Source: a virus
Taxonomy: Duplodnaviria > Caudoviricetes
Length of the DNA stretch: 26,648 nucleotides
IMG/VR virus record: IMGVR_UViG_3300037419_001205
Location: 1-26,648 of that record
Reading direction: 5' to 3' (one strand)
Every line of letters starts with the position of its first letter. Within the stretch, counting starts at the first letter, position 1. Shown here in pieces: positions 6,915 to 26,333 of the stretch. Below the pieces are notes generated by a model. It was not told where the DNA came from. It worked only from the letters and a program-made list of their open reading frames with translations, and ran no database searches. The position numbers were made by a program, and so were the translations under genes.

Positions 6915-8610
6915 AGAATACATATTCCTTCTTTCCGACCTTAACAACATTATAATCCTCTATTACCAATTGTGGCTTAACAACCCCGTTGTATTCATTA
7001 ATTCCACATTTCACTACAATGTCCATTGTGACATTTTCACCTTTTGATAACTCAGTATACTCTTCCTCACTGGATTTGAATCTGATGAACTCTATTCCCC
7101 TAGATGTAAATTTCAACACATTCTTCTTTTGCCCATTGTCTATGTCAGATGTATTTACTTGAATATCTTTAATTAATAACAATGGCTCTCCGACTGTGTT
7201 GCCCCAAACATCTCTAAGTTGAGCAATATCTTTTACAATACTTTCATTAATTTGATTCGAAGGAATAACAAAGTCAACTTCATACACGTTTTCATTTAAA
7301 ACATGTGATAATTTTTCATTTAATATGTCATTCACCTCAACTAAATTATCTTTATGTATGTTAATGCCAAATGCATTCTCATGACCTTCACAAAAGATAA
7401 ATTTATTTGTATCAATCAAAAAATTTCTAAAATCCTTTATCTCATGCTTATCATAACCTCGTCCTGATCCACCATAGACATCTTCTTCATGATATCTAAC
7501 AAGCAAACAGGGACGTTTATATTTGCTTACCAGTTGATTAGCTACAAGTCCGGTTAGTGATTGCTCTAAAATATCACTAACGTTTACTATTAATATTTTA
7601 TTTTTATCTAAATCACGTTCTTCGATTCTCTCTTCAATTAACTTTAGTCCTTTGTCTCTAAGTCTGTTTTGTCTAGCTCTAACATTGCCCATAATTCTAG
7701 CCATAGCAACTGCAATGTGTTCACTCTCTGCTTTTTTCTGATTGAATATATGTTCTTTACTTTCTAGTAATGCTTTCATCATATCAATCTTTTCTAACAC
7801 ATTGCCCACTCGAACTGTAGCGTTGATCAATGGGGCAATATAAAAAAGTACAGTCGTGATATTAATAATCCCTTTTGTTGAGAACTCCTGTTTCTTAAAG
7901 AGTTCTTTTAATAATGGGTTGTTGATTTGCTTTAGTCCTTCAAGAACATAATACCTTGTTTCTAATTCCCTAAGATCCATAGAATCGGAAGCGTTACCCA
8001 CTGCCACCAAGTCCAAAAAATAATCTGCAAATTTTACATTTATGTAGTTATCTAATGCTTGGCAAAACTTATATACAATACCAGCCCCAGATAAATTTTT
8101 ATTTGGATAATTAGGAGAAAGTTGATTGTTGACCACAATAGCATAATTAGACTCTCGTTCACAAAGATGGTGGTCAAGAACAATAACATCGATGCCTTTC
8201 TCACAGAGTTTTTGATGTTCTTCGTATTGGTTTGACCCTGCATCTGGGATAATAACAAGTTTAGTTCCTGAAGGAATTGTTTCTAAATCGACTCCATGCA
8301 CTTTGCCTTCTCTAATTCTCCAAACAATATCACTTTTGGGGTAGACTCTTGATAAATAGTTAATCAAAATTGCTGACGAACAATAGCCATCTGAATCTTC
8401 GTCCACTTGTATATAAATTCTATCTTCATTATTTAAATGGTTTAACAAACACTCAACAGCTTTATCAATGTTCTTCAATAACTTCCAACTGTGTGTGTGA
8501 CTTTCTTGTACATTTAAGAAACTTTGCACATCTTCAATCCCTCTATTATTAAGGATTGTTTTTACAGGATCAATTAAATAGTCGTTCGAACCAATTAATC
8601 TGTACTTCAT
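6913..8610 (-). CDS. recJ: RecJ/DHH-family ssDNA exonuclease (YorK-like)
   Basis: DEDSDG, PDAG, LDHH, SGAG, APLINA, GSGRG and GHENAFG motifs; synteny. Confidence 0.9.
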   Translation of the reverse strand: MKYRLIGSNDYLIDPVKTILNNRGIEDVQSFLNVQESHTHSWKLLKNIDKAVECLLNHLNNEDRIYIQVDEDSDGYCSSAILINYLSRVYPKSDIVWRIREGKVHGVDLETIPSGTKLVIIPDAGSNQYEEHQKLCEKGIDVIVLDHHLCERESNYAIVVNNQLSPNYPNKNLSGAGIVYKFCQALDNYINVKFADYFLDLVAVGNASDSMDLRELETRYYVLEGLKQINNPLLKELFKKQEFSTKGIINITTVLFYIAPLINATVRVGNVLEKIDMMKALLESKEHIFNQKKAESEHIAVAMARIMGNVRARQNRLRDKGLKLIEERIEERDLDKNKILIVNVSDILEQSLTGLVANQLVSKYKRPCLLVRYHEEDVYGGSGRGYDKHEIKDFRNFLIDTNKFIFCEGHENAFGINIHKDNLVEVNDILNEKLSHVLNENVYEVDFVIPSNQINESIVKDIAQLRDVWGNTVGEPLLLIKDIQVNTSDIDNGQKKNVLKFTSRGIEFIRFKSSEEEYTELSKGENVTMDIVVKCGINEYNGVVKPQLVIEDYNVVKVGKKEYVF

Positions 8611-8614
8611 TTTA

Positions 8615-9883
8615 TCATCCCTCTGTTATTTTTATTTCTTTATTTAAAATCTCCTCAATCTTATGGAAGTTCCAATATGGGATTCTGAGCAATGGGATAT
8701 TTTTCAAAGTACAATATGTATTTTTAATTTTGTCATGTCTAACAATAATTTCATGTCCATCATCTTCGAACTGCTTTTTAAAATGGAATTCCCCATCATA
8801 CTCAATTAATAATTTTAATTTATTTTTGGTATTAAAAATTGCAAAATCAAATCTGAGCAATCCCCCTCCAATCCCTAATAAATCATCAAATGAAAACTGA
8901 GGGATAAAATTAATACTATTTTTTTCCAAAAATAGACGTACTGCTTTTTCTCCTTTAGATTCATTGCAAACTGAACATCCGTTTCCTGCAATTGCTCTGC
9001 TTTTTACTTCCGCTTCCCATACATTATCGCAATTTTCATTAGAGCATATCCACCATGCCTTTTTATGACTTCCAGATGTTACTTGATGGGGTGAAATTTC
9101 ATTGAACGTAATATGCCATTCTTTTGTTAGTTCTGGATGTGTAGTAGCCAAGCAATTAGTATGATTAACTCTCCTACCCGAACAATAAGGACATCCACAC
9201 TTCAGTTTGCTGCCAATTGTCATATCATAATCACTTTCACAATCAGGACATAGCCACCATACTCTTTTCCCTGATCCATAAGTTATATTAAAAGGAGTTA
9301 AACTTTTGTTTTTAATTGGATGCCATTCTTCAAATAAATGTGGATGTGTGGTGGCTAAACAGTTAGTATGGTTAACTTGACTATTAGAACAATAAACGCA
9401 ATCTTGCTTATTATAAACTCTTTGAAATGGTGATAATTCATAATCGCTTTGACAATCTGGGCAAATCCACCAATATTTTATATCACTACCCGAAGAAACT
9501 TGCTCTGGAATTCTCTCATTTCTTTCCGAATTCCATTCACAAACTAAATTTGGAGCAACATATGCTAATGAATTTTCAAATAGTACATTGTCGAGACGTT
9601 TATTAGATATTTTCCTTCCGCTACACTCACGACAATAATCTGTACCATCTCCTTTTTCACGGTGATAAATTATACTGTAATAATGCTGTAATCCACAGTC
9701 GACTCCACAGTAGTCACATATTTTAGGCACCTTGAAGTCGCTGCCTTTTGGCAAATCTTCTATCTTTACTTCAATAATTGTTCCTTTCGCAACTCTTAAT
9801 CTATCTCTCTTATCCAATCTACGAGGAATTAAGTAACCTTTACTTTCATAATGTTGCAGATTTTTACCACTAACATTGACCAT
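8615..9883 (-). CDS. Zn-ribbon repeat protein with C-terminal PD-(D/E)xK (Vsr/DUF559-like) endonuclease; probable free-standing homing endonuclease
   Basis: Three EW..GS..K.WW.C..C...C..C repeats plus N-terminal CxxC pairs; C-terminal SKGE...FDF...IEYDGEFH...D..KN.YC.....LLRIPYW. Confidence 0.8.
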   Translation of the reverse strand: MVNVSGKNLQHYESKGYLIPRRLDKRDRLRVAKGTIIEVKIEDLPKGSDFKVPKICDYCGVDCGLQHYYSIIYHREKGDGTDYCRECSGRKISNKRLDNVLFENSLAYVAPNLVCEWNSERNERIPEQVSSGSDIKYWWICPDCQSDYELSPFQRVYNKQDCVYCSNSQVNHTNCLATTHPHLFEEWHPIKNKSLTPFNITYGSGKRVWWLCPDCESDYDMTIGSKLKCGCPYCSGRRVNHTNCLATTHPELTKEWHITFNEISPHQVTSGSHKKAWWICSNENCDNVWEAEVKSRAIAGNGCSVCNESKGEKAVRLFLEKNSINFIPQFSFDDLLGIGGGLLRFDFAIFNTKNKLKLLIEYDGEFHFKKQFEDDGHEIIVRHDKIKNTYCTLKNIPLLRIPYWNFHKIEEILNKEIKITEG

Positions 9884-9908
9884 AATAGTTGAAATCCCAA
9901 TTGCGATT

Positions 9909-10991
9909 TTATTCTCCTCCTTCAGTTTTGACTTCTATTTTATTTTTCATAAGAAATTCTAATGTTTCTTTTCCTTTGTCGATAGGCGAATCTTTATAAT
10001 TTAGAACATTCCATTTATCGAATATCACGAAAGTTTTAACATATGGGGTAAACTTCTTAGTTATTCTTTTTAATGTTTCAGCCCATTTATATGCTTCATC
10101 ACTCTCATGATCTTTGAATTGTTTATCAAAGGCGATAATTACTTCTTCTACACCTAAACTAAGCAATGTGTTCACTTGCCATTTAGATATATTACTACCG
10201 TAAACTGCACATGAAAAGTTGTCTTCACCATATATAGATTCTGTTTTTAAACATGATTTTTCTGACTCCCATAGTACAACCTTACGAAATCGCTTAATTG
10301 AATGTTGAGTTTTGTTTAACATATATAAATTATACATAGTAGGGAAAGAGTAGAGTTTATGTTCAACTGTTGCAGGAATGTATTTTTTCCCTGCAACAAT
10401 TTCTTCTTCTCGAAGATTTCTAGCTCTAAGACCAATTAATTGTCCTTCTGTATTCCGACAAGGTATAATAATTTGATCTTGTTTAATGTAATAACTTATC
10501 CCAAATTGACGTTGAACTTCTAGGCTTATTCCTTCTCTTTCCCATTCTTCATGACCAATTGGAAGAAAAACATCAAGTATTTTTTCGCTATGTATTGGAA
10601 GTGTTATATCAACTTTCTTTTTTGGCAAATATCGCTCAATCCAACTCCAATCATCAATCATGTGACTCTGCTTCTGATTTGTAGTTGTGAATAACTTCCC
10701 AGTTAGATTGCCTACATATCTAACTGCTTCTAAGAAATTAATTTTTTTAACTTGCTCTACTAAACTAAATATGTCATAACTTTGACCACAATCTGTATAA
10801 CAATGAAAAGATTTGCTCTGTGGATAATAATATAACTTATGTTTTCCACCATAGTTGTTGTGGCAAACAGTCTGGTACATCTCGTGTCCTTGTGAATCTT
10901 GTTTAGGTGCAGCACTTCCCAAATCTCTAAGAATTAAGCGTATATCCTCACTACTTAAACTTTCTTTGATTCGATCCTTATCTAGCCTCAA
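9909..10991 (-). CDS. Phage DNA primase (YorJ-like)
   Basis: N-terminal Zn finger (CH...CYTDC), TOPRIM-like ESEKS and IIAFDK; next to the helicase. Confidence 0.85.
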   Translation of the reverse strand: MRLDKDRIKESLSSEDIRLILRDLGSAAPKQDSQGHEMYQTVCHNNYGGKHKLYYYPQSKSFHCYTDCGQSYDIFSLVEQVKKINFLEAVRYVGNLTGKLFTTTNQKQSHMIDDWSWIERYLPKKKVDITLPIHSEKILDVFLPIGHEEWEREGISLEVQRQFGISYYIKQDQIIIPCRNTEGQLIGLRARNLREEEIVAGKKYIPATVEHKLYSFPTMYNLYMLNKTQHSIKRFRKVVLWESEKSCLKTESIYGEDNFSCAVYGSNISKWQVNTLLSLGVEEVIIAFDKQFKDHESDEAYKWAETLKRITKKFTPYVKTFVIFDKWNVLNYKDSPIDKGKETLEFLMKNKIEVKTEGGE

Positions 10992-14174: not shown

Positions 14175-15110
14175 TTAAAATGGAAGGTCATCTGGATTAA
14201 TCTTAGGTTTCTTATCGCTCTTTACATCAAAACCTTTTTTTTCATCTTTCTTCTCTGTAGTTGATTCTTGTGGTTTAGGTCTATTCTTTAGTTGTTCTAA
14301 GTAAACTTCACGTTCAGTTAATGCTTTCTTAACAACCTCTACATTATATACCTTTGTATTGTCCTCATTATAAGGAGGAGTACCACCTGTAATCACAAAC
14401 TCTCTAACTGTTTTGCGAGATACTTTTTTCTGTGGTTTACCAAAACCAACTTCAACTTCGGTTTCAGTAACTTCTACATGATTGATAATGTCACCAAAGA
14501 TTTTAGCGGTTGCTCCTTTAGTATAGTTATCTTTGATGTAATCAACTGCACCGGAATCAGCAACGATAAATTCAATTGGAACAAGTTTACCACCATACAC
14601 AGGTAAGAATGCTTTTACTTTTGCTCGACCTGTCTCTTCTTCTTTAACTACTTCATCAGTTACACTTTGTACGATAATCTCTACTTCAAATTCTGCTTTT
14701 GGTGAATACTCTTCGTTGGCTTGTACTCGATTGATGAAGTTAGTTGATAACTGTGGGAAGGATTTTAATTGACCGTCTTGTCCGAAGTATTCATTAACTC
14801 CCAAATTTCCTACTGTAATACGAACCTTATCAGCCTCATCTCTACCTACTTTAGCAACTGACTTGTATTCATTCATTACAGTTAGTAAACCTTTATAAAT
14901 ACCGTTTTCAGATCCATCTTGCTTTGCTGCATAACTGAAAACTCGAATAGTGTGTGCAGATCCTTCAGCAGTTTCAATATCAATTTCACCAGTGATTGCT
15001 GCTTTACCATTTACATCTTTTGTTTCAATTCTGTTTTCTAATAGAAGACCCTCAATTGTTACCACGTTATCAGCTTGACGCAATGTATTAGTGTTTGTAT
15101 TTTCGCTCAT
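14175..15110 (-). CDS. YorF-like putative ssDNA-binding protein
   Basis: Beta-rich sequence, charged tail ending in the SSB-type DDLPF; first gene of the replication operon. Confidence 0.75.
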   Translation of the reverse strand: MSENTNTNTLRQADNVVTIEGLLLENRIETKDVNGKAAITGEIDIETAEGSAHTIRVFSYAAKQDGSENGIYKGLLTVMNEYKSVAKVGRDEADKVRITVGNLGVNEYFGQDGQLKSFPQLSTNFINRVQANEEYSPKAEFEVEIIVQSVTDEVVKEEETGRAKVKAFLPVYGGKLVPIEFIVADSGAVDYIKDNYTKGATAKIFGDIINHVEVTETEVEVGFGKPQKKVSRKTVREFVITGGTPPYNEDNTKVYNVEVVKKALTEREVYLEQLKNRPKPQESTTEKKDEKKGFDVKSDKKPKINPDDLPF

Positions 15111-15242
15111 ATGTATTTATTCCTCCAAGTTTATTATAGTTTAATTTTATGTCTTATCTCGCTGCCTCATCTAATCTCTACTTCCTCTGCTCGGCTACAT
15201 GATTTCCGCAACCACCCCTTTCAAGTTGTCCTCTGTATTTGT

Positions 15243-15283
15243 ATAGTAACATGTATTTTTAATTCTGTAAATGATATTTTTAT
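15243..15283 (-). promoter_or_regulatory. Replication-operon promoter with conserved 18-bp box
   Basis: TTTACA-17-TACTAT (TG-extended); ATAAAAATATCATTTACA at 15266-15283. Confidence 0.75.
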
Positions 15284-15324
15284 TTTTATATTAATCCATT
15301 TAAAACGTTTATTTCGTTGGGTTT

Positions 15325-15936
15325 TTAATTATATACAGCAATTTCAGTCGAACCTTCTTGAACTTCTTGCAATACTTCAGGTTCATTATGTATCACACTA
15401 ACACCTAACGGGAAGACTTCAACAATTGCAGAAGTAATATCTTTAGCCATTCTCATTACCACTGAAAGACGTGTATTCGCTAAAACTTGAAGTTCCATAT
15501 GACCACCAATATTAACTACTCCCATTATTCCATAATCACCTGCCAGTGGGAGTTCCTTACGTACACCTGCTCCAGCTTTAATGGAGCCATTAATTACTGA
15601 ATAAGTTTCTATGTTGCTAAATTGACCTAGACAAGCATCAATAGCAATTACTTTTTTATCTTCCGGTAATTTATCCAGAGTTTCTTGTAAGTTTAATGCA
15701 TGTACTGGTTCATCAATTGTTCCAAATATATTCTGATATCCAAGACCAGACAAGTATGTACCCACCAATGGAGCCAGTGCATCTCCCGTATTCCTGTCAG
15801 TTCCAATACACAAGAATACAACATCTTCGTTGGTTAAGTGTGAAGGGATAATTGCAGACATTGCTGTAACTAACTCTTCTTTTGTTCTGATCCTAGAAAT
15901 CTTACTCCCCTTAAATACATCTTCATGCGCTACCAT
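15325..15936 (-). CDS. yyaC: YyaC-like spore protease (GPR family)
   Basis: CIGTDRNTGDALAPLVG, PVHALNL, IAIDACLG, GAGV.KELP..GD, NTRLSVVM. Confidence 0.92.
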   Translation of the reverse strand: MVAHEDVFKGSKISRIRTKEELVTAMSAIIPSHLTNEDVVFLCIGTDRNTGDALAPLVGTYLSGLGYQNIFGTIDEPVHALNLQETLDKLPEDKKVIAIDACLGQFSNIETYSVINGSIKAGAGVRKELPLAGDYGIMGVVNIGGHMELQVLANTRLSVVMRMAKDITSAIVEVFPLGVSVIHNEPEVLQEVQEGSTEIAVYN

Positions 15937-15996: not shown

Positions 15997-16037
15997 ATAA
16001 TACACCATCATATACATTTTGTAAATGATATTTTTAT
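15997..16037 (-). promoter_or_regulatory. yyaC promoter with conserved 18-bp box
   Basis: TTTACA-17-TATTAT; ATAAAAATATCATTTACA at 16020-16037. Confidence 0.75.
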
Positions 16038-16043
16038 ATCTAA

Positions 16044-16244
16044 TTAAAGAAATTTTTTATTTACATATTCACCCAACCTAATCCAAGCATCATCTAATCC
16101 CTTCCCAGTATGTATATCAACCACTCTGCGATATTTTACCTTGCCTTCATAAAATTCATCTATAGAACGAAATGTGTAGCGAGTAGTTTTATGATTTTCT
16201 ATCTCCTCTGTCTTCAGCAATTCCCATTCACTCTGAATGTCCAT
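16044..16244 (-). CDS. Hypothetical protein, 66 aa (MDIQSEW...); start reassigned
   Basis: GGAGGAAGAGG upstream of ATG 16244; overlaps the stop of the upstream small ORF. Confidence 0.7.
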   Translation of the reverse strand: MDIQSEWELLKTEEIENHKTTRYTFRSIDEFYEGKVKYRRVVDIHTGKGLDDAWIRLGEYVNKKFL

Positions 16245-16753: not shown

Positions 16754-16803
16754 CCTGTTCATTTTATTCCTAATTTGGTACAATAGTCTATGAGGTGATT
16801 ACT

Positions 16804-17208
16804 ATGACTTTCGGTTCTAGGCTTAAAGCACTAAGGAAAGAACAACGCATGTTGCAGAAAGACCTAGCTATATTGCTAGACCTTTCATCTGATACCATTG
16901 CAAAATATGAACGTAATCAACGTACTCCAAATCCAGATACCTTGCAAAAAATTAGTAGTATATTCAATACTTCCGTTGACTATTTGCTTTGCAATACAGA
17001 TATACAGACTAGCCCTGAAGAGCAATTTCTTTTAGATGATGTCTCCGATGATCTTGATGAAATGGATAAAAAGATTGATGAATTCGCTGAAAAGCATGGA
17101 ATATTACTCTTCAGTGATGGCGATGGTAAAAGATACTCAAAAGAAGAATTGCAAACTATTATTAAAAATTATTTGAGAATGATTAACACTTTTAAAGACA
17201 TCACTTAA
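16804..17208 (+). CDS. XRE-family HTH repressor (ImmR/CI-like)
   Basis: FGSRLKALRK...QKDLA...IAKYERNQRTP...SVDYLL; GAGGTG RBS before ATG 16804. Confidence 0.88.
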   Translation: MTFGSRLKALRKEQRMLQKDLAILLDLSSDTIAKYERNQRTPNPDTLQKISSIFNTSVDYLLCNTDIQTSPEEQFLLDDVSDDLDEMDKKIDEFAEKHGILLFSDGDGKRYSKEELQTIIKNYLRMINTFKDIT

Positions 17209-17209
17209 A

Positions 17210-17899
17210 TCACATATTAAATACTATGATAAATTTTATCTTATTTTTATAAATCACGGGAAGTGATGCACCAAACAAGTCCAAAACTGACCCATTTTTA
17301 TGGAAACCTTTATAAAACATGATTTGTGCCATTTTTGTTTCAATGATACCCTTATGCACTTTGGCTATCACATCCATACTTTCTTGCAGAATCAATGGAA
17401 AGATGCTTTTGTTTATAATGTCTTCTCTTTGATGTCCCGATAATTCAACCCATTTATCAGATACGTATGGTACCACTCCATCTAATGTGAGTAGGTTGAT
17501 CATACGCTCTTCAGGTTTCCATTTGCAAATATTTATTATATAAGCATTCACTTCTTGTATTTTCCCGTCAATTTTTATCGGTTCTAAATAAACCAACATC
17601 CTAAATTCCTTTATGTCGTCTTTGCTGTCATACACAATTGGAGTTCCATTGAAAGCAGTTTCGTAATACGGTAGCATGATTGGAATTCGATGTTCGGGTA
17701 CGACCTCCCCCAACTTCCCAGTTTTTAATTTCCCAAAATTTGTCGTTAGTGTATCGGTGAATTGACCTTCTGCTTCCGTGATAACTATTTCACCATCAAT
17801 CTTTTTCATTTTGAAAAACGCCCCATCTCTTTCAGGTGAGAGGTTGTACGTGCTTAGATAGTTACCATATTTACTGATGATGGAATTTAACCGTTCCAT
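17210..17899 (-). CDS. Stand-alone tandem PAS-domain protein
   Basis: PAS-like motifs: LPYYETAFNG...LVYLEPI..DG.IQEV and LTLDG.V.YVS......SG..REDIINKSIF...KNGS; no output domain; likely start ATG 17899. Confidence 0.7.
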   Translation of the reverse strand: MERLNSIISKYGNYLSTYNLSPERDGAFFKMKKIDGEIVITEAEGQFTDTLTTNFGKLKTGKLGEVVPEHRIPIMLPYYETAFNGTPIVYDSKDDIKEFRMLVYLEPIKIDGKIQEVNAYIINICKWKPEERMINLLTLDGVVPYVSDKWVELSGHQREDIINKSIFPLILQESMDVIAKVHKGIIETKMAQIMFYKGFHKNGSVLDLFGASLPVIYKNKIKFIIVFNM

Positions 17900-17916
17900 A
17901 CTTCCACTTCCTTCAC

Positions 17917-17930
17917 CGAACATCTGTTCT
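17917..17930. promoter_or_regulatory. LexA/DinR (SOS, Cheo) box
   Basis: CGAACATCTGTTCT matches GAAC-N4-GTTC, lying between the -10 and the RBS of the PAS gene. Confidence 0.7.
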
Positions 17931-17938
17931 TGTTTTTT

Positions 17939-17967
17939 ATTATATCACAATTAGAATATGAGAACAA
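17939..17967 (-). promoter_or_regulatory. Promoter of the PAS gene
   Basis: TTGTTC-17-TATAAT with TGTG-extended -10. Confidence 0.7.
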
Positions 17968-18039: not shown

Positions 18040-18173
18040 TTCGACAAATAGTTTCCTCAACTGATAACTTTTATCAGTTTAAAACGCTTTTTTAGTATAA
18101 AAAAGAGCCATGATTCGACACGGCTCTTTCCTTTGACATTTATACTATTATATTTTCGACAATATTTGTCGAA
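18040..18173. promoter_or_regulatory. Cluster of four TGTCGAA (Spo0A-box) matches plus a separate palindrome
   Basis: TTCGACA at 18040, 18114, 18155; TGTCGAA at 18167; AACTGATAA-CTT-TTATCAGTT at 18059-18079. Confidence 0.6.
18099..18129 (-). terminator. Intrinsic terminator after the peptide gene
   Basis: AAAGAGCCGTG-TCGAAT-CATGGCTCTTT-TTT. Confidence 0.8.
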
Positions 18174-18329
18174 TTACCAACCATCACCGACTCCAGTTAT
18201 AGTGTATCCGTCAGCCTGTTCTGTTACTTTGTCGTTTTGATTGTTCGCATTGTCATTGTTTTGAACAGTACCAGAGTACAATGTAATAGCAGTGACTAAA
18301 CTTGTAACAATCAATAATAATTTTTTCAT
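18174..18329 (-). CDS. Unannotated secreted signalling pro-peptide, 51 aa: MKKLLLIVTSLVTAITLYSGTVQNNDNANNQNDKVTEQADGYTITGVGDGW
   Basis: AGGGAGGTG RBS; MKK plus hydrophobic signal peptide, polar linker, Gly-rich C-terminus; 15 bp after the HTH-TPR gene. Confidence 0.88.
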   Translation of the reverse strand: MKKLLLIVTSLVTAITLYSGTVQNNDNANNQNDKVTEQADGYTITGVGDGW

Positions 18330-18344
18330 GTTTTTCACCTCCCT

Positions 18345-19640
18345 TCAAGCCATGTTATCTCTAAGTAATTGAAGTTTAGTTAATTGTTCTGTCGTTAATC
18401 TGATTCCATGTCTACCGATTAAATCAGTAATATGATAGAACAAGTCTACAATTTCATCTTTGTAGTGTATTTGACAAATATATTCTGCTGACCGGAAATA
18501 TTCCTCAAGTGCGTTAATTGGGTCTGTATCTTTAAGCAACAAACCACTATTCCTTAAATAAAAACCAATCCACTCTGTATATTTAAAGTGATCTTTCTCT
18601 GTTATATGGTTAAGTTTTTTGACTATCTGTTCTTGGTCTTTTTTAGCCTGAGATATATTACCCAAGTAGTATTCTGCGTAAACTTTATCAGTTAAAATGT
18701 TCAATACTTCTATATCATCAACAAGTATTTTATTTGCTACTTCCCAATGTTTTTTGGCTTCGTCATATTTTCTTTGTAAGAAATAACTTCTACCAGTATT
18801 CAGATGAGCATAAGTATACAATCGCTCATTATTTATTAATTTGTCATTGTATAGTTGGATATTCTCCTTATAGCAATTTATAGCTTTGTCATATTGCTTT
18901 ATTTGTAAATACGTATTCCCATGTAGATTTAACGTCCAAGCTACCCTTATGATGTCACTATTATCTGTCCTATAACTTAATGATTTCTCACATCCCACTA
19001 ATGCAGGGATATATTTTTTGTTGAAATAGTTAGCCAAAGCATACCAAAACCAAATTTCCATTAATCTATCTGGATCGTCTGAAATATCTTGTATGACTTT
19101 CTCAATTATACTTAAGAAAAACTCAAACTTCCTTTTGTCATAGCAAGCCTCCCAAACTTGTCTACACAAATCATAAAATTGATTTTTTGGGATAAGTTTA
19201 AAGTGTTTAACTATATATGAAATGAAATTTGGATGAACAGAAGCACCGACCATGTGCTTCCAAATAACAACTTGGAATAAGGTAATAATTAAATCCTTTT
19301 GGTTGCCTTCTTTTTTAATAATGCGAATACATTTATTCAAAGACTTTCTTGCTAGTCTTACTTGATTTAATTCTAATTTCATTTTTTCAATAAATTTTAA
19401 TAAGTCTGGCACATTATTTAGAAGATGTAGATAATCACTATATAACTCATATTTATCTATACCTAATCCTTCTGCAATCAATTCTATATTTTCTAACTTG
19501 GGAGCAGAGTCTCCACGTTCAATCCTAGAATAGGCAGCAATCGAAATAGCAAAGTCAATATTAGCAACAACATCTTCTTGTGTCAATCGCTTGGATTTTC
19601 TTATTAACTTTAACTTTGCTCCAAATTTCTTCTTATCCAT
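18345..19640 (-). CDS. RRNPP-type HTH-TPR peptide-sensing regulator, 431 aa
   Basis: N-terminal XRE HTH (YSRIERG..P), TPR motifs (LNLHGNTY...YDKAINCY; HLNTGRSY...YDEAKKHW); cognate peptide gene downstream. Confidence 0.85.
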   Translation of the reverse strand: MDKKKFGAKLKLIRKSKRLTQEDVVANIDFAISIAAYSRIERGDSAPKLENIELIAEGLGIDKYELYSDYLHLLNNVPDLLKFIEKMKLELNQVRLARKSLNKCIRIIKKEGNQKDLIITLFQVVIWKHMVGASVHPNFISYIVKHFKLIPKNQFYDLCRQVWEACYDKRKFEFFLSIIEKVIQDISDDPDRLMEIWFWYALANYFNKKYIPALVGCEKSLSYRTDNSDIIRVAWTLNLHGNTYLQIKQYDKAINCYKENIQLYNDKLINNERLYTYAHLNTGRSYFLQRKYDEAKKHWEVANKILVDDIEVLNILTDKVYAEYYLGNISQAKKDQEQIVKKLNHITEKDHFKYTEWIGFYLRNSGLLLKDTDPINALEEYFRSAEYICQIHYKDEIVDLFYHITDLIGRHGIRLTTEQLTKLQLLRDNMA

Positions 19641-19850
19641 TTCTTAAGCCCCAGACTAATTCTATATGTCGATACATGTCGTTTTTTTACCTATAATATA
19701 ATACCATTATTACGTATTGGAATAAAACAATAAAATATGGAAGAACTATGATTTGCACGTTATGATTTATAGGAATAATCTAGGTTGCAAGAATGACAAT
19801 GGTGATATACTTACAATGTATTAAATTACCTACAAAGAGAGTTGCATTGA

Positions 19851-20045
19851 ATGAATAGATATAAGCCAAGGATACATTTGATTAGAGAAAAGAGAGGTTT
19901 GAGTCAAACTGAATTAGCTAAAAGAATAAATGTTAGTCAGCCATTATTAAGTAAATGGGAAAGTGGAAAGGCTTACCCTAGATACCCTGAATTAAAGGCA
20001 ATAGCAACAGTATTAAAGTGTTCGATAGAAGACCTATATTTATGA
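19851..20045 (+). CDS. Small Cro/XRE HTH protein (YopS-like position)
   Basis: IREKRGLSQTELA...LSKWESGKAYP; convergent with the yopR-like gene. Confidence 0.85.
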   Translation: MNRYKPRIHLIREKRGLSQTELAKRINVSQPLLSKWESGKAYPRYPELKAIATVLKCSIEDLYL

Positions 20046-20141: not shown

Positions 20142-21164
20142 TTAGATGTCGTATAATTTAGAAATATTCTTCATATTAATCCATTCTTTTAAAGGACTCC
20201 AGTTGTAGAACTCATATTTGCCATTCTTCACTTTTGGCATTTGGTAATACTCCATTATCTCGATATATTGATCTTTGTCTAAAATTCCATCCCTTTTGTA
20301 TAATTGAAATCCCATAAATATTTGACCGGATCTATATATATTCTTACTCGTTAAATACGGATTCTCAAATAACTCACTTATCGTAGATAGTCTTCTATAA
20401 ATAACATGAGGACTAACACTATCCATCGGCTGTGTGTTACGTGTGGCTCCCACTCTAATTACATAATCATTATCAACTAATAAAGTTACTGGACTCTGAT
20501 TTTCTCTTAAATCGGCTTCATTATTTTTTTTATAATATTCTTTTTCCTCCGTAGCCTTCCTAATCAAAGCAATACAATCTCTGCTAACTTCATAATTTTC
20601 ACGAATTACTTTTCCATCTTTATCTCTCAAGGTTAAAATATTGTTATCATAATCAACATCTTTCTTTAATAAATGGCATATAGAATGCACGTCAACACCT
20701 TCAAATAAAAGTTGAAACAATACTCCATCTTGTGCATTTTTACATCCATGATTCTCATCTGTTAATTGATCTAATTCATGTTTTGATATATAAATCATTA
20801 CATTCTTATCTACAAATTGCTTAAACCAATCTTTTGGAACCAAGGTTAATGGATTAATGTTATTACTTCTATGACCGTTTTCTATAGACCAAGTTAAAAA
20901 TGATTTGATGGTTGAAAAATTTGATCTACTTGCCGATATGGTGAGTGGATTAAGCTCTTGCATAACCCTTTCAATTTCAGAAATGTTAAATTCCGACAAA
21001 TCTTTACCTAGTTTTTCTTCTAGTGACCCACTTCTGTAAAAAACTCTCTTATAAGTTTCCGCTGTCTTATCTCCGAAAGTATCTAAAAATTCATTTTTAA
21101 TAACTTCATTGTACATCTTATAATCTTCTTCAGTATATTTAAAGTTCCCCTTCATATTAGGCAA
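20142..21164 (-). CDS. YopR/MrpR (SroF)-like lysogeny repressor with degenerate tyrosine-recombinase fold
   Basis: Integrase-like layout; LLFEGVD lacks the catalytic Arg and KNIYRSG replaces HxxR; directly after the yopQ-like gene as in SPbeta. Confidence 0.8.
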   Translation of the reverse strand: MPNMKGNFKYTEEDYKMYNEVIKNEFLDTFGDKTAETYKRVFYRSGSLEEKLGKDLSEFNISEIERVMQELNPLTISASRSNFSTIKSFLTWSIENGHRSNNINPLTLVPKDWFKQFVDKNVMIYISKHELDQLTDENHGCKNAQDGVLFQLLFEGVDVHSICHLLKKDVDYDNNILTLRDKDGKVIRENYEVSRDCIALIRKATEEKEYYKKNNEADLRENQSPVTLLVDNDYVIRVGATRNTQPMDSVSPHVIYRRLSTISELFENPYLTSKNIYRSGQIFMGFQLYKRDGILDKDQYIEIMEYYQMPKVKNGKYEFYNWSPLKEWINMKNISKLYDI

Positions 21165-22479
21165 CCACCTTCATATCTAATTTTGAGAAATAATCTTTTA
21201 TTTTAGTCCGTGCTTTTCCTGTTACAGTCTCTTTCTCGTCTAATACGCCTAATTCTCTCCAAAGAGGATTGTTTCTAGAAAAATCAATTGAATCTAATAC
21301 ACTTTTTATTTTAGAAACTCTTATGCCCTGATCTTTGAACAATTTACTTAATGCAATATAGCCAGCAAACATTACATTATGGGACATTAAATTATCCTTA
21401 GATGGATTGTTGAATTCGTTAGGATAATAAGAGATTAAGTAATCAAAGAAATCTTTTAGATAGTCAAACACTTCGTCCGATTCAATTTTGTTACTAATTG
21501 AATACACCTCGTCAATTGTGTCAGCTAGGGTATTCGAACTAACGATATGCCCAACAGATGTTGTTACTTTTGAAGTTCGTGAAATCCTCCCCTTTAGTTC
21601 GGATTCTACTCCCAATCGTCTTACTATTAAATCTGATTTCCTTGCTTGTTTTATTGCTTTAAGATGCCCCGCATCCATAGGGTTTACCGTGTTTACCTGT
21701 CCAACTAAATCCTGAGCATCACGTAAATTATAATTGTTTATGGACACTTTAAATGTGAATTCTATTTCTGGATTTATGGTCAAAGCTTGTAATGCTCCAC
21801 TGATCCTATGAAATCCGTCCAGAATATCAACAATTGACCCTTTTAATATTGTCAAACTTTTACTTTTAACGTCATAATGAATATCGTCTCCCGAATCACT
21901 ACTTCCATTTCGGACATTAAAAGTTATAGTTGTTGATTTCAGTGTGCCATTTAGAATGTGTTCTGCAATTTCTTTTACACTCTTTGGATTTACATTTGGA
22001 GTTTCAATAATTTTGTCGCCTTTTCTAACAAGTTTAGCATTTCTTTGCGTATCAAAATTATAGGTTAATAAATTATTGTCCATCCATTTCTTAATATCTA
22101 TAATAGACATTTTTGTAACATAATCATCTACGTCAACTTGAATTACTTCGTTTAGTGTTATTGGAAAATCAATTTTTTCATTTTCAACCACTTCCTCATA
22201 AGTCTTAGATTCTTTAATTTCATTTGGCGTGAAATATTTTTCCGGTGCAATTAAATCATTTTTTGTTATTTCAAAAGCCTCTAAAGTTAATAAGCAAAGT
22301 ACTCTTGCATCTATTTCATCTAACGGAGTTGACCCTTGAATATATGATTGTGTATCTCCACCATAAATGTTATATTTTTTGTCTAATTCTTTTTTGAGTT
22401 TATCAACTAATTTTCTATTCTTTTTTAGATCGCCAAAGACGGTCATTAAATTATTTTCTAGTGCATCTCTATTTTTCAT
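21157..22479 (-). CDS. YopQ-like DGQHR/DndB (ParB-superfamily) protein
   Basis: YNFDTQR, TITFN, ILDGFHR motifs; overlaps the start of the yopR-like gene. Confidence 0.8.
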   Translation of the reverse strand: MKNRDALENNLMTVFGDLKKNRKLVDKLKKELDKKYNIYGGDTQSYIQGSTPLDEIDARVLCLLTLEAFEITKNDLIAPEKYFTPNEIKESKTYEEVVENEKIDFPITLNEVIQVDVDDYVTKMSIIDIKKWMDNNLLTYNFDTQRNAKLVRKGDKIIETPNVNPKSVKEIAEHILNGTLKSTTITFNVRNGSSDSGDDIHYDVKSKSLTILKGSIVDILDGFHRISGALQALTINPEIEFTFKVSINNYNLRDAQDLVGQVNTVNPMDAGHLKAIKQARKSDLIVRRLGVESELKGRISRTSKVTTSVGHIVSSNTLADTIDEVYSISNKIESDEVFDYLKDFFDYLISYYPNEFNNPSKDNLMSHNVMFAGYIALSKLFKDQGIRVSKIKSVLDSIDFSRNNPLWRELGVLDEKETVTGKARTKIKDYFSKLDMKVVA

Positions 22480-22563: not shown

Positions 22564-22633
22564 GTTTTTTTTATATCTATATGAGAAAATCGTCCAACAA
22601 TTTACGACATCCATACAAAATAAAAACCTGCAA

Positions 22634-24739
22634 CTATGCAGGTAAACTAAGGACTTTATTTTTTATGAAATCATTAAATTGCTCTGGAGTATTATCATAT
22701 CCATAAATATTATGAAATTCGTTATGGATATCTTTTGTCAACGGGACTCCTAATCCGTATTTATCATGAAGCTCAAGACATTTGTCGGATAATGTTTTTA
22801 ATTCATCTTTGGTATATTTCCCATAGTGATCGTATAAGTCTAATCCCAATTCAATCAAAGTCTCAACTACAATTTTATTAAAACTGTACAAGTGGTGAAC
22901 CTGTAAGTTTTTTGTTTGATTCGTTATGGTACATTTGAAATTATATTTCTTAAATGATTTTATTCTCCAATCATAAAGTTTCGACCTCAAATAGTTAGAC
23001 AGTGAATTTTCACCACCCTTCCAGTTGTAATGATTCACTCCTGAAAGTTTGACTATTTTACAATTAATACATTTGCTACCTCTTGTTAAACTAGAGAAAG
23101 TTATCTTAGATTTATTACCACAAATGCACAAATAATCTAATTGGTCATTTGCGTTAACATAATTCTCACTCAACAATGTACATCCTTCTTTTTCAAAATA
23201 ACTTTTTACATATTCATAATCGTGTCTTCTTTTTTCTGCTGTTTTATCAATTCCACATTTTTTACATCTGCTACCATTCTTAAAAGATTCAAAAGTTGCT
23301 ATATTTTCCTCTCCACATTCACACACATATCTTAATTTTTCATGGGTGTTAGTATAACTTTCAGAAAGTAGCAAACAATTATTTTCTAAATAATAATTAA
23401 ACACCTTATCATATGTCGCTCTTCTTTTATTAGCTCGTTTACTTACGCCACATTCCCAACATCTATAACCAAATTTAAAATCCGCATATCTTATTTTACT
23501 AATATTTCCACATTCACAGATGTAATCTAAAATTTCACTGTTGTTGATATATTTCTCAGATAATAAAATACAACCACTTTTATGAAAGTGTTCTCTTACC
23601 TCACTGTATGACAATCTCTGTGCTGCTGATTTTCTTTCTGGCATACACTGTCTACATCTAATTCCCCTTGAGAAACTGTCGAGTGTTGTACGTCCCAACT
23701 CTCCGCATTCACATTTGAACATGAGGGGAGATTTACTATTGAAATATTCGTTTGAAATTAATTCACAATCACTTTGTACAAAAATTTTTCTTACTTGTTC
23801 GATTGTATATTTTTTTGTTCCACCACAAGTAGCACATCTCGTTCCAGATTTAAACTTATTGAATCTTGCATTGTAATTATGCCCTTTGGGACAAATTGTT
23901 TTTAATAAGGCTCTTCCATGATTATATTCTGTAGATAGTAACTGATATCCCTCTTTTTCAATAAAAGATTTTACTTCTTCGTATGTGTACTTTCTAGTGG
24001 AAGCACACATATTGCATCTGTGTCCCAATTTAAAACAATTAAAAGTAGTTTTATATACATGATTATGATTACATTTAATTTTTAATTTACTACCTGAGTT
24101 GACATACTCTTTTGATAGCAACTCATATCCACTTTCTCCTTCAATAAAACTTTTCACATACTCATACGTATGCTTCTTATTACCAGAACAAATTGCACAT
24201 CTATTTTCATTATTCTTAAATTCACTGAATGAAACACTGTATTCATGACCTTTTGGGCAGATTGTTTTTAGTTTTTTAGTAGCATTTTTATATTCAGTTG
24301 AAATTAATTGATATCCGTATTGACAAAAATACTCTACTACATAATCATACTGGTATTTAGCGTTTCCGTAACAATATTTGCATCTATGTCCCTTTTGGAA
24401 ATTGGAGAAAATCATCTTTACTTTGTGACCTTGTGGGCATATCATATTTAAATTTTTACTATTTTTCTCATAAGTTTCATCGATTAAGGTATAGGCTTCA
24501 TTCTCAATGAATGATTTGACATATTTATACCCTAATTTATTTCTTTGTAAAAAACATTCTCTGCATCTTTTGCCAGCTTTGAATTTACTAAATGATATTT
24601 TACATGTGTGACCCTGATTGCAAATCAAATCTAGTTTATCGATGGATTTTTTATACACTGTAGATAGTAATATGTAATTTTCTTTTTCGATAACTTCTTT
24701 TACTAAATCAATTGTTATTTTTTTCTCACTGCTTCCCAT
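22634..24739 (-). CDS. Nine-repeat Zn-finger protein with C-terminal HNH-like nuclease domain
   Basis: Nine ~60-aa repeats, NHYNWKGG linker, then C...LQVHHL...H..FH..YG..N; AGAGG RBS favours ATG 24739 (alternative 24748). Confidence 0.8.
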   Translation of the reverse strand: MGSSEKKITIDLVKEVIEKENYILLSTVYKKSIDKLDLICNQGHTCKISFSKFKAGKRCRECFLQRNKLGYKYVKSFIENEAYTLIDETYEKNSKNLNMICPQGHKVKMIFSNFQKGHRCKYCYGNAKYQYDYVVEYFCQYGYQLISTEYKNATKKLKTICPKGHEYSVSFSEFKNNENRCAICSGNKKHTYEYVKSFIEGESGYELLSKEYVNSGSKLKIKCNHNHVYKTTFNCFKLGHRCNMCASTRKYTYEEVKSFIEKEGYQLLSTEYNHGRALLKTICPKGHNYNARFNKFKSGTRCATCGGTKKYTIEQVRKIFVQSDCELISNEYFNSKSPLMFKCECGELGRTTLDSFSRGIRCRQCMPERKSAAQRLSYSEVREHFHKSGCILLSEKYINNSEILDYICECGNISKIRYADFKFGYRCWECGVSKRANKRRATYDKVFNYYLENNCLLLSESYTNTHEKLRYVCECGEENIATFESFKNGSRCKKCGIDKTAEKRRHDYEYVKSYFEKEGCTLLSENYVNANDQLDYLCICGNKSKITFSSLTRGSKCINCKIVKLSGVNHYNWKGGENSLSNYLRSKLYDWRIKSFKKYNFKCTITNQTKNLQVHHLYSFNKIVVETLIELGLDLYDHYGKYTKDELKTLSDKCLELHDKYGLGVPLTKDIHNEFHNIYGYDNTPEQFNDFIKNKVLSLPA

Positions 24740-24751
24740 TCTAAACATCCT

Positions 24752-24844
24752 CTCTCATGTTTATTTCACTCTCATAATATTTCTGAGGGAAGATGGTGAG
24801 AGTTCCATCTTATCAAACAGGTTGATCAGACCCATTCTATCCCT
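24752..24844 (-). ncRNA. Structured 5' leader RNA: three-way junction whose loop is complementary to two downstream sites
   Basis: P1 AGGG/CCCU, P2 AAUGGGU/ACCUGUU, P3 AAGAUGG/CCAUCUU with loop AACUCUCA; targets UGAGAGU and UGAGAG. Confidence 0.6.
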
Positions 24845-24850
24845 AACTGT

Positions 24851-24879
24851 ATTATAATACTTCTCACATTAACTGTAAA
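24851..24879 (-). promoter_or_regulatory. sigma-A promoter for the leader and HNH gene
   Basis: TTTACA-17-TATAAT; predicted +1 coincides with the start of P1. Confidence 0.8.
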
Positions 24880-24912
24880 TATGTTTATTTAATTTATTTT
24901 TACACCTATAAG

Positions 24913-24939
24913 AAAAAAGACAGATATCTCAATCTGTCT
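24913..24939 (-). terminator. Intrinsic terminator, copy 1
   Basis: AGACAGAT..ATCTGTCT hairpin plus U-tract. Confidence 0.75.
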
Positions 24940-25505
24940 TAGTCCCATAAACGTCTATCTTTAAAGTCTCCAGCTCTCATATAGTTTCCAAAGTTGTCTC
25001 GTAAATCATCAGAATCGGGGTGGGCTGGATACACTTTCATTGAACTCTTACAACTTCTACAGCGCACCTCTGTAGTTCCTTTAGGTAAATAATGATTCCC
25101 TCGATCATTACAAATGGCACACTGATAATGACATATATAAACTGTCTGACCGTCTCTTTCTTTTGTACCTGATCTCCAAATATCTGTGCATTCATTTTGA
25201 GAAGTGTATATCTCTTGTAGTTGATTATCTTGTAAAGTTTCAGTCATAACTTCTTTTATATCTTCAAGTTTTTCAATATTTTTATCAACTTTATATTCCG
25301 GTTCTTCACTCTTTATTTCATCAAAGAACCCTTTATATAAATCCTCAATCTTAGAATATGTCTTTGACACTTCTAGAATGTCTGTGGATATACCAAACAA
25401 TTGAAATACATTTTGAATAATCATCAACTTACTTATATTATCAGCATCACTAATTTCTAAATCGGCTCTTTTATCTCCATCGACAATTTGAATTTTAATC
25501 TGCAT
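24939..25505 (-). CDS. Hypothetical protein with C-terminal Zn ribbon, 188 aa
   Basis: CAIC...CRSC; AGAGG RBS. Confidence 0.75.
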   Translation of the reverse strand: MQIKIQIVDGDKRADLEISDADNISKLMIIQNVFQLFGISTDILEVSKTYSKIEDLYKGFFDEIKSEEPEYKVDKNIEKLEDIKEVMTETLQDNQLQEIYTSQNECTDIWRSGTKERDGQTVYICHYQCAICNDRGNHYLPKGTTEVRCRSCKSSMKVYPAHPDSDDLRDNFGNYMRAGDFKDRRLWD

Positions 25506-25645: not shown

Positions 25646-26284
25646 TTACTGGGTTTTAAACATGTCTTTCAATTGCTCTTCATATAAAGTAGCATCAAAA
25701 TCATCCTTAAATTCAATAGCATTCCCTAAACAATTATTATCTTTATCATAAAGTTGAATAATCCATTTGTTTTCAAGTATATCACGGTCTTTACCAACCC
25801 TAATTGGAAATGCTTCTTTAAGCCACCAATTCTTAGTTGGTTTTGCCATAGGAACCCAAATGATTTTATCAGTTAGTTTACTTAAATGTTCATTAAACTC
25901 TTTTTGAGATTTATTTAGTAATTGTTTAGTGGAAACTATATTCATACTCCATTGTTCCTTATATCCTTCTAATGATGCATTTTCTTCTCTCATTATTAAA
26001 TGAACTAATTGCTGTTCAAATGATGTTTTCATTGCATGATGGCGAGATAGTTCCAATTCTATCATACGCATTTCATTTGTATAGTCACTTATTCCAAGTA
26101 AAAAATCAACACTCTCTCCAAATAAATTTGATATTTCAACCAATGTCTCTAACTTTGGATCTCTTTGATTGTACTCTATTTTTGCATATCCAGAAGGCGA
26201 CATACCAAGTTTAGCAGCCATTTCCTTATGAGTGAATTTGTGTGTTTCTCTGAGCCATTTTAATCTTCTTGCGAATACTTCCAT
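25646..26284 (-). CDS. XRE-family HTH regulator with uncharacterised C-terminal domain
   Basis: FARRLKWLRE...HKEMA...YAKIEYNQRDP...SVDFLLG; GGGGTG RBS before ATG 26284. Confidence 0.85.
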   Translation of the reverse strand: MEVFARRLKWLRETHKFTHKEMAAKLGMSPSGYAKIEYNQRDPKLETLVEISNLFGESVDFLLGISDYTNEMRMIELELSRHHAMKTSFEQQLVHLIMREENASLEGYKEQWSMNIVSTKQLLNKSQKEFNEHLSKLTDKIIWVPMAKPTKNWWLKEAFPIRVGKDRDILENKWIIQLYDKDNNCLGNAIEFKDDFDATLYEEQLKDMFKTQ

Positions 26285-26304
26285 GCAACCACCCCATTTA
26301 GTCA

Positions 26305-26333
26305 TTGACTATAACCCAATTTGGGTATATTAT
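26305..26333 (+). promoter_or_regulatory. Promoter with palindromic operator in the spacer
   Basis: TTGACT-17-TATTAT; ACCCAA-T-TTGGGT at 26314-26326. Confidence 0.7.

Follow-up and report, generated by a model that had tools for sequence, protein, structure and literature searches.

A putative non-AimR receptor-peptide cassette with arbitrium-like gene order in an SPbeta-like phage

The virus record IMGVR_UViG_3300037419_001205 (Duplodnaviria; Caudoviricetes) is a linear stretch of 26.6 kb (26,648 nucleotides, all of it analyzed here and called the window), with an estimated completeness of 18% (CheckV). Its minus strand encodes a protein with a helix-turn-helix (HTH) and tetratricopeptide (TPR) repeats, followed directly by a small gene for a predicted secreted propeptide. 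The two genes resemble the receptor-propeptide pairs of RRNPP quorum-sensing systems, and the role that they may have in the lysis-lysogeny decision is the subject of this report. The same gene order is found in L005, a contig of a sister phage. The pair and its signals are arranged as follows.

18345 to 19640, minus strand: RRNPP-type receptor of 431 residues, with an XRE HTH (about residues 1-70) and an all-helical TPR superhelix (Pfam, structural model and fold matches)
18336 to 18342, minus strand: Shine-Dalgarno sequence GGAGGTG of the propeptide gene (from the sequence; conserved in L005)
18174 to 18329, minus strand: predicted secreted propeptide of 51 residues ending TITGVGDGW (ATG at 18329, stop at 18174)
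18099 to 18132, minus strand: terminator-like hairpin with a U run (-19.1 kcal/mol, z -5.9, none of 200 shuffled sequences as stable)

The gap between the receptor stop codon and the propeptide ATG is 15 bp long and contains the GGAGGTG sequence. The small open reading frame (ORF), its ribosome binding site and the closing terminator are all as described in the original prediction, which was made from the DNA letters. That prediction had also called the ORF hidden; it was indeed missing from the first ORF track, but the exact 51-residue protein is already a called gene in a public protein collection. An ORF finder gives the propeptide as 54 residues, starting from a GTG upstream at 18338. The protein begins with MKK and a 12-residue hydrophobic stretch, the mean hydropathy of which is 2.68 compared to 2.76 in SPbeta AimP, and the signal is putatively of the Sec type. 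The C-terminal end reads ADGYTITGVGDGW, and the mature peptide is predicted to comprise the last 5-10 residues. A consensus terminator scan did not list the hairpin at 18132-18099; a hairpin of different sequence (z -6.0) follows the peptide gene of L005. The receptor and propeptide share a reading frame in both phages, separated by the TGA stop and 15 nucleotides (window 18330-18347, L005 3062-3080), a layout that may reflect conservation of spacing alone.

Pfam models above their cut-offs place HTH_3 at residues 10-65 of the receptor and TPR repeats (TPR_2/TPR_12) at residues 233-302. The predicted structure (pLDDT, the predicted local distance difference test, of 84.9) is an all-helical superhelix, whose fold matches include RapI (Z 22.5), Pins/LGN (22.3/21.4), the Rap protein of pLS20 (20.2), RapH (19.7), NprR (17.8), PlcR (16.3) and AimR (14.3). 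LGN holds the top rank in Foldseek.

The published signature of RRNPP systems is a TPR receptor of 250-500 residues, a propeptide of 10-100 residues and a gap of -60 to 400 bp between them (PMC10075063). The 431-residue HTH/TPR receptor and the 51-residue ORF, with its ribosome binding site and 15-bp gap, conform to this signature, and the two very probably form a real receptor-peptide pair. The original prediction had staked its case on small ORFs accompanying homologous receptors and on the receptor lying outside the described AimR clades. As to the former, a signal-type small ORF directly follows the receptor in three of the three homologous loci with DNA context. The L005 propeptide has 56 residues and ends TTNGDAGGW, so that it and the window peptide have the common end pattern T..G...GW; the ORF on a B. 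marinus plasmid (locus L026) has 38 residues; and that of provirus G002 (locus L033) has 43, with GPGETS occurring twice. Internal duplication is a known trait of propeptides (PMC9765709). A TPR regulator could also lie beside an unrelated small exported peptide by chance, with no signaling between them, and the lack of a clear A-X-A cleavage site in the window propeptide speaks for such an arrangement. It is nevertheless highly improbable, given that the genes are paired in four of four loci with unrelated peptide sequences, one of which has an internally duplicated C-terminal motif, and that divergence of the TPR part goes along with divergence of the peptide but not of the HTH.

This joint divergence is evident when the window is compared with L005 across the pair and its neighbors, which are listed here in order.

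21157 to 22479, minus strand: YopQ-like DndB/DGQHR protein (domain match and identity to YopQ)
20142 to 21164, minus strand: MrpR (YopR)-like master repressor (PF22822 and PF22823 above cut-off)
19851 to 20045, plus strand: XRE protein of 64 residues, divergent from the receptor gene and in the yopS position (Pfam; L005 copy 88% identical)
17210 to 17923, minus strand: PAS-only protein in the aimX slot, with no catalytic domain (likely start ATG 17899, giving 229 residues; Pfam PAS at 145-214)
16795 to 17208, plus strand: XRE repressor-like protein of 137 residues, convergent with the PAS gene (1-bp gap) and divergent from a promoter at 16711-16683

The proteins on both sides of the cassette are well conserved in L005: the identity is 98% for the C-terminus of the YopQ-like protein, 87% for MrpR and 88% for the 64-residue HTH protein on one side, and 80% for the HTH part of the 137-residue XRE protein, 75% for a 69-residue ORF and 81% for a DUF1256 protein on the other. 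The receptors are 41% identical overall, with 71% in the HTH and 37% in the TPR part; the propeptides are 33% identical and the PAS proteins 24% (over 226 residues; the L005 counterpart is at 3564-4280). At the DNA level, some 80% identity gives way to about 50% between roughly 19500 and 17000, the stretch that encodes the TPR part, the peptide and the PAS protein. Thus the TPR part and the peptide co-vary between the sister phages and the HTH does not.

Both versions were found together in soil. The region is contained in 11 sequencing runs, none of them an RNA run; the four runs examined, none of which carried a flag as a possible source, are from one year and one habitat, and may belong to one campaign. 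Run X4 has a 1946-nucleotide contig identical to the window cassette (0 differences) and a 1439-nucleotide contig that covers the receptor and most of the propeptide of L005, also with 0 differences. Run X6 contains the complete window type; in X10 and X11 the L005 type is represented by pieces. Two natural dialects, with 41% identical receptors in a near-identical phage background and the same soil sample, constitute a ready test system for specificity and crosstalk. In the loose ends of X4 and X10, inspected by eye, the receptor P0003 (TPR part 75% identical to that of P0004, the L005 receptor) appears to represent a third allele.

The receptor family is small at close range. A word-index protein search gave four matches among 4276 candidates, namely the receptor itself, one protein with 71% identity and two with 41%. 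An exhaustive search gave 298 matches at E<=0.001, 35 at 1e-10 and 4 at 1e-30. The family alignment, A5, comprises the window receptor and 26 proteins (24 from the exhaustive search plus P0004 and P0006), all of which can be aligned over a single long stretch; fragments and long proteins with many TPR repeats were left out. A295, W299, R363 and N364 in the TPR part are nearly invariant in A5. Conserved asparagines of RRNPP receptors grip the backbone of the peptide (a point not found in the one paper checked for it). In a tree, the window receptor, P0006, P0003 and P0004 form a 100/100 clade, whereas the placement of the reference receptors is unusable because every reference branch is long (3.1-4.7). 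Four of the ten family members looked up have an organism name, which is Brevibacillus in all four, and the phage host is likely Brevibacillus-like.

Known phages yielded little. Five family members used as queries against 50,697 GenBank phages gave HTH-level matches or none, and zero full-length matches. Searches with the receptor returned HTH-type families only from PHROGs, and HTH (ComR) and generic TPR matches only from the sequences of the Protein Data Bank (PDB). A search for the locus in viral contigs found nothing with the window receptor alone and no viral locus with P0013; with an alignment of four sequences it found one real locus, L005. L004 (GTDB genomes) and L006 (metagenomes) were dropped as spurious, being short TPR matches, each 30% over 73 residues. 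The L005 contig was also the only close relative obtained with MrpR (1 of 1 loci) and with the 64-residue HTH protein (1 of 17 loci).

AimR was compared directly through two proteins representing 2 of about 10 clades, those of SPbeta (clade 2) and B83 (clade 7). They score 0.6 and -0.6 bits, respectively, on the A5 profile, compared to 66 and 73 bits for two receptors of RRNPP_detector candidate subfamily 08 (17 and 36 for the TPR part alone; E 1e-19 to 1e-21 at Z=1000) and 48.9 bits for PlcR. The NCBIfam AimR model, NF038310, did not match the receptor; over the whole window record it touched only the 64-residue HTH protein, at 13.5 bits (the cut-off is 70 and SPbeta scores 272), and it is absent among the matches listed (the best 25 of 30 families) for 27 family members. 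By sequence, then, the receptor is not an AimR within the two clades compared, and the second point of the original prediction, an RRNPP pair whose receptor falls outside these clades, held as well. A divergent member of the AimR/arbitrium family would explain the clade-7 gene order, the SPbeta-like phage and the presence of AimR in the fold list at Z 14.3. The profile scores, the silent AimR model and the want of any full-length GenBank phage match make this explanation very unlikely, and it is largely refuted.

The family instead appears to be a distant relative of subfamily 08, which occurs in Paenibacillaceae/Brevibacillus (PMC10075063) and is the known group with the highest scores on the A5 profile. 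The subfamily 08 receptors, like that of the window, have an XRE HTH and TPR repeats, are about 430 residues long and are separated from the peptide gene by a short gap; the two peptides examined end in glycine and an aromatic residue (DPGY, DPGW). Pairwise BLAST between the window receptor and the two subfamily 08 receptors gave nothing significant (best E 0.19, 21% identity), and in the tree the two make up a separate clade at the end of a branch of length 3.8. Subfamily 25 is also from Brevibacillus (PMC10075063). B. marinus and B. humidisoli have no entry among 2,396 listed rows of the RRNPP_detector strict table, which does not mean that the family is uncatalogued, because the paper has 12,050 pairs; distant family members could well be present in these tables, although we lean slightly towards their absence. 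On plasmid L032 of Brevibacillus sp. DP1.3A, at about 2570-2700, a propeptide-like ORF ending YYPDPGW, which is not in the gene table, follows a subfamily 08 receptor.

Other characterized systems are more distant. NprR-NprX, PlcR-PapR and Rap-Phr have a similar TPR superhelix, and NprR and PlcR also share the HTH-TPR order, but their identity to the window receptor is 11-16%, their regulons are chromosomal or plasmid-borne, and Rap lacks the HTH. AloR-AloP of Paenibacillaceae has an HTH-TPR receptor, a downstream propeptide and the same host family; the one AloR tried scored 6.0 bits (E 0.24) on the A5 profile.

The surroundings of the pair resemble those of an arbitrium system. In all four loci an XRE gene is divergent upstream of the receptor gene and another XRE gene is convergent downstream. 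The gene between the peptide and the convergent XRE gene encodes 46 residues in L033, 77 residues in L026 and the PAS-only protein in the window and L005. The original prediction overlooked both this frame, which is like that of B. cereus-type arbitrium, and the PAS-only gene. The order in the four loci is that of B83 gp37-gp41, a locus called clade-7 arbitrium (PMC6669507). The aimR-aimP-aimX order beside a phage repressor is present in all of them, with a putative aimX equivalent. The QSS-repressor-operon configuration has been noted as a sign that the operon is under control (Bernard 2023, PMC10075063, citing Stokar-Avihail 2019). The clade-7 system (gp37-gp42; PMC6669507) has in common with the window the divergent XRE gene, receptor, propeptide, small gene and convergent XRE repressor, and both peptides are Gly-rich and acidic in their C-terminal region. 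It differs in its 392-residue AimR, which has no detectable sequence likeness to the window receptor, whereas the window has a 229-residue PAS protein in the aimX slot and belongs to an SPbeta-like phage with MrpR.

The affinity to SPbeta rests on a replication cluster of SPbeta type (Sak4-like, DnaB, primase, RecJ, Pol III alpha and RecD2), on a helicase that is 44-45% identical to those of SPbeta-like phages, and on the YopQ-like protein (31.5% identical to SPbeta YopQ and 39.9% to that of Geobacillus virus E3) and MrpR. The pair lies downstream of the YopQ-like and MrpR genes, bearing out its predicted place after yopR/yopS; the 64-residue HTH gene matches yopS by position and orientation, an assignment made by place and not by YopS sequence. 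The co-oriented receptor and propeptide genes and the N-terminal hydropathy of the propeptide are shared with the clade-2 arbitrium of SPbeta/phi3T. In SPbeta, however, arbitrium sits upstream of yopM-R, and the window pair is found downstream of mrpR and the yopS slot. The window receptor has a canonical XRE HTH and lacks an AimR model match, and its peptide ends GDGW (C-terminal GVGDGW), while 74% of clade-2 peptides end RGA. There is no yopP-like integrase immediately upstream of the window YopQ-like gene.

The region upstream of that gene differs from SPbeta in further respects. The SPbeta yopP site is occupied by a gene for a 704-residue treble-clef zinc-finger/HNH-type endonuclease (22634-24748, minus strand), which is an optional insertion in the population, because a contig of run X10 joins 22610 to 24937. 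Beyond it are genes for a 188-residue protein of phrog_34931 (24939-25505, minus strand) and a 219-residue XRE protein (25646-26305, minus strand), in the place where SPbeta has aimR-aimP-yopM-O.

Short sequence elements flank the pair on both sides and are also found further downstream.

19667 to 19681, no strand assigned: pair of TGTCG boxes with 10-bp spacing, upstream of the receptor gene, candidate autoregulatory operator (conserved in L005)
18155 to 18173, no strand assigned: palindrome TTCGACA-N5-TGTCGAA immediately 3' of the peptide stop, candidate operator
17939 to 17947, minus strand: candidate extended -10 element TGnTATAAT upstream of the PAS gene (from the alignment; in the window and L005)
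16711 to 16683, minus strand: sigma-70-type promoter, 12/12 in the promoter scan, pointing to the replication cluster

Further TGTCGA boxes are found at 18115-18120 and 18041-18046. The stretch downstream of the peptide has 4 TGTCG in 274 bp, compared to 0.15 expected (p=0.0001), and the stretch upstream of the receptor has 2 in 210 bp (p=0.011); all five non-coding TGTCGA of the window fall in these two stretches. Across the whole window TGTCGA is not enriched (11 against 6.9, equaled in 9 of 100 shuffles), and the promoter scan as a whole was at chance level (38 sites against 33.7). The counts at the same two places in L005, 3 TGTCG (p=0.0008) and 2 (p=0.012), are the fairer test because the motif was chosen after the window had been seen.

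The observed gene layout, domains, hairpin, repeated TGTCG boxes and TPR-peptide co-variation can be combined into a scheme in which a non-AimR RRNPP quorum-sensing cassette gates the lytic program of an SPbeta-like phage in an arbitrium-like manner. We regard this reading as evenly poised between right and wrong. The propeptide would be exported by Sec and trimmed to a C-terminal peptide of the ...GVGDGW type, which would be taken up again through Opp and would bind to the TPR domain of the receptor. The receptor HTH would read the TGTCG boxes and control its own promoter as well as a transcript initiated downstream of the peptide terminator. This transcript would encode the PAS-only protein and run head-on into the convergent gene of the 137-residue XRE repressor, which faces the 12/12 promoter directed at the replication genes. 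AimX can act antisense to a repressor. The peptide-free receptor may keep the PAS/antisense transcript on, so that the repressor would be low and the lytic genes on; accumulated peptide would turn the transcript off and, together with MrpR, favor lysogeny. Which way the switch acts is guessed from the analogy with AimR. Different TPR-peptide versions would serve as separate channels for co-existing phages.

A number of observations weigh against this scheme. The receptor fold fits RRNPP proteins without singling them out, because the non-RRNPP TPR proteins LGN/Pins match it at Z 21-22. In place of the palindrome, L005 has three direct boxes, and the TGTCG counts at the two places are 2 (weak, p=0.03) and 0 in L033, and 0 and 0 in L026. 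The protein that binds TGTCG could be MrpR or one of three other XRE proteins, whose HTHs, with 80-88% identity in L005, are as conserved as that of the receptor (71%); MrpR of SPbeta has been described as binding the aimR promoter. A terminator-like site at 16427-16412, after the 69-residue ORF, weakens the link between the promoter and the replication genes. Finally, with 18% of the genome at hand, a canonical aimRP may lie elsewhere.

A stronger form of the proposal is an arbitrium that evolved independently. The non-AimR family, common to SPbeta-like phages and to small temperate phages and plasmids of Brevibacillus-like hosts, would then have acquired the aimR-aimP-aimX-repressor wiring, and in the lineage of this phage it would have a PAS-only effector and two or possibly more peptide dialects competing in the same soil. 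This form is possible, but on balance we doubt it.

The PAS-only protein suggests another output for a genuine quorum-sensing pair, namely host manipulation. The pair would then set the level of the PAS-only protein and not decide between lysis and lysogeny. This protein would serve as a decoy of, or a dominant-negative partner for, a PAS sensor kinase of the host, such as one of the sporulation phosphorelay. The PAS-only gene does follow the pair in both SPbeta-like phages, within the block of low identity. The PAS matches in the PDB are eukaryotic PAS-B domains, and the best Atlas structure for the L005 protein is the PAS region of a Bacillota histidine kinase, although at a TM-score of 0.44, which is below 0.5. 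Phage RRNPP systems beside sporulation regulators have been described in the literature, and the DUF1256 'spore protease' gene is located 1.3 kb further on. Against a host target, searches that were themselves weak found no longer protein with these PAS domains at E<=0.001, L026 and L033 keep the XRE frame with no PAS gene, and contig pieces of X11 give a weak hint that PAS alleles and receptor types are shuffled independently of each other. Host manipulation is therefore an unlikely explanation, albeit one to be taken seriously. Additional PAS alleles with the window-type start were seen in the loose ends of X10 and X11.

A third possibility, which we consider less probable still, is that the pair forms a secondary or autoregulatory channel, which would either do no more than fine-tune the XRE proteins beside it or add to a canonical aimRP located elsewhere, as Rap-Phr does in phi3T. 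It would suit a record with 82% of the genome missing, and AimR-AimP together with Rap-Phr has been reported in 67 Bacillus (pro)phages. Not counting the optional endonuclease gene, about 1.9 kb is also all that the window includes ahead of the YopQ-like gene, whereas the start of aimR in SPbeta is 3.6 kb ahead of yopQ. However, the receptor family stands alone in the immunity region of provirus G002, where L033 is positioned between the integrase and the repressor/early genes. This provirus is 41.5 kb long and 93% complete, with terminase, portal and tail genes, and it has no match to NF038310; this favors the arbitrium-like gating scheme, though less strongly because the model may not cover B. 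cereus-type AimRs. Moreover, AimR matches and this receptor family are both missing from the SPbeta-like phages E3 and Perkons, so that AimR is not obligatory in the SPbeta-like group. The serine integrase of G002 adjoins a truncated 5' part of spoVR (L033 1-306 and 204-1628), and a sporulation gene has apparently been interrupted.

If arbitrium-like gating is correct, a non-AimR receptor in arbitrium wiring would imply that the decision circuit arose more than once, and the PAS-only gene, placed in the slot of the effector, would suggest how the phage could integrate density with a chemical signal or one from the host. All characterized phage lysis-lysogeny peptide systems in the literature searched use AimR, and the well-studied ones are just a few clade-2 systems. 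The significance is capped by the many non-AimR phage RRNPP candidates that were already predicted in bulk, those of Brevibacillus included, which the original prediction had overlooked. A 2021 preprint predicts 26 RRNPP families with viral members, 20 of them new (bioRxiv 10.1101/2021.07.15.452460), and 21 new RRNPP subfamilies were later predicted (PMC10075063); the 'QSS1' of the preprint may be the same as subfamily 08. In the literature searched, with most subscription papers outside its coverage, no paper describes this peptide or arrangement; nothing relevant was found for GVGDGW, VGDGW or TGVGDG, and nothing for prophage, PAS and quorum peptide in combination with Brevibacillus. What is added here is a non-AimR family in arbitrium wiring, its presence in an MrpR-bearing SPbeta-like phage, the co-occurring dialects and the PAS-only gene.

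Several other features of the two phages were noted. A second endonuclease gene of the DUF4379/HNH type (8615-9883, minus strand) is positioned between the primase and RecJ genes. The DUF1256 gene (15325-15936, minus strand), whose product we take to be YyaC-like, is possibly a sporulation-related accessory gene. In L005, RNA ligase-like, nucleotidyltransferase-like and polynucleotide kinase/HD-like ORFs were recognized by eye in a row at 7215-10344 and may form an RNA-repair cluster. Short intergenic segments of 28-37 nucleotides, 89-97% identical in the comparison of the window with L005, are repeated at 577-604, 15106-15326 and 16013-16048, and are possibly an early-promoter or MrpR-type element.

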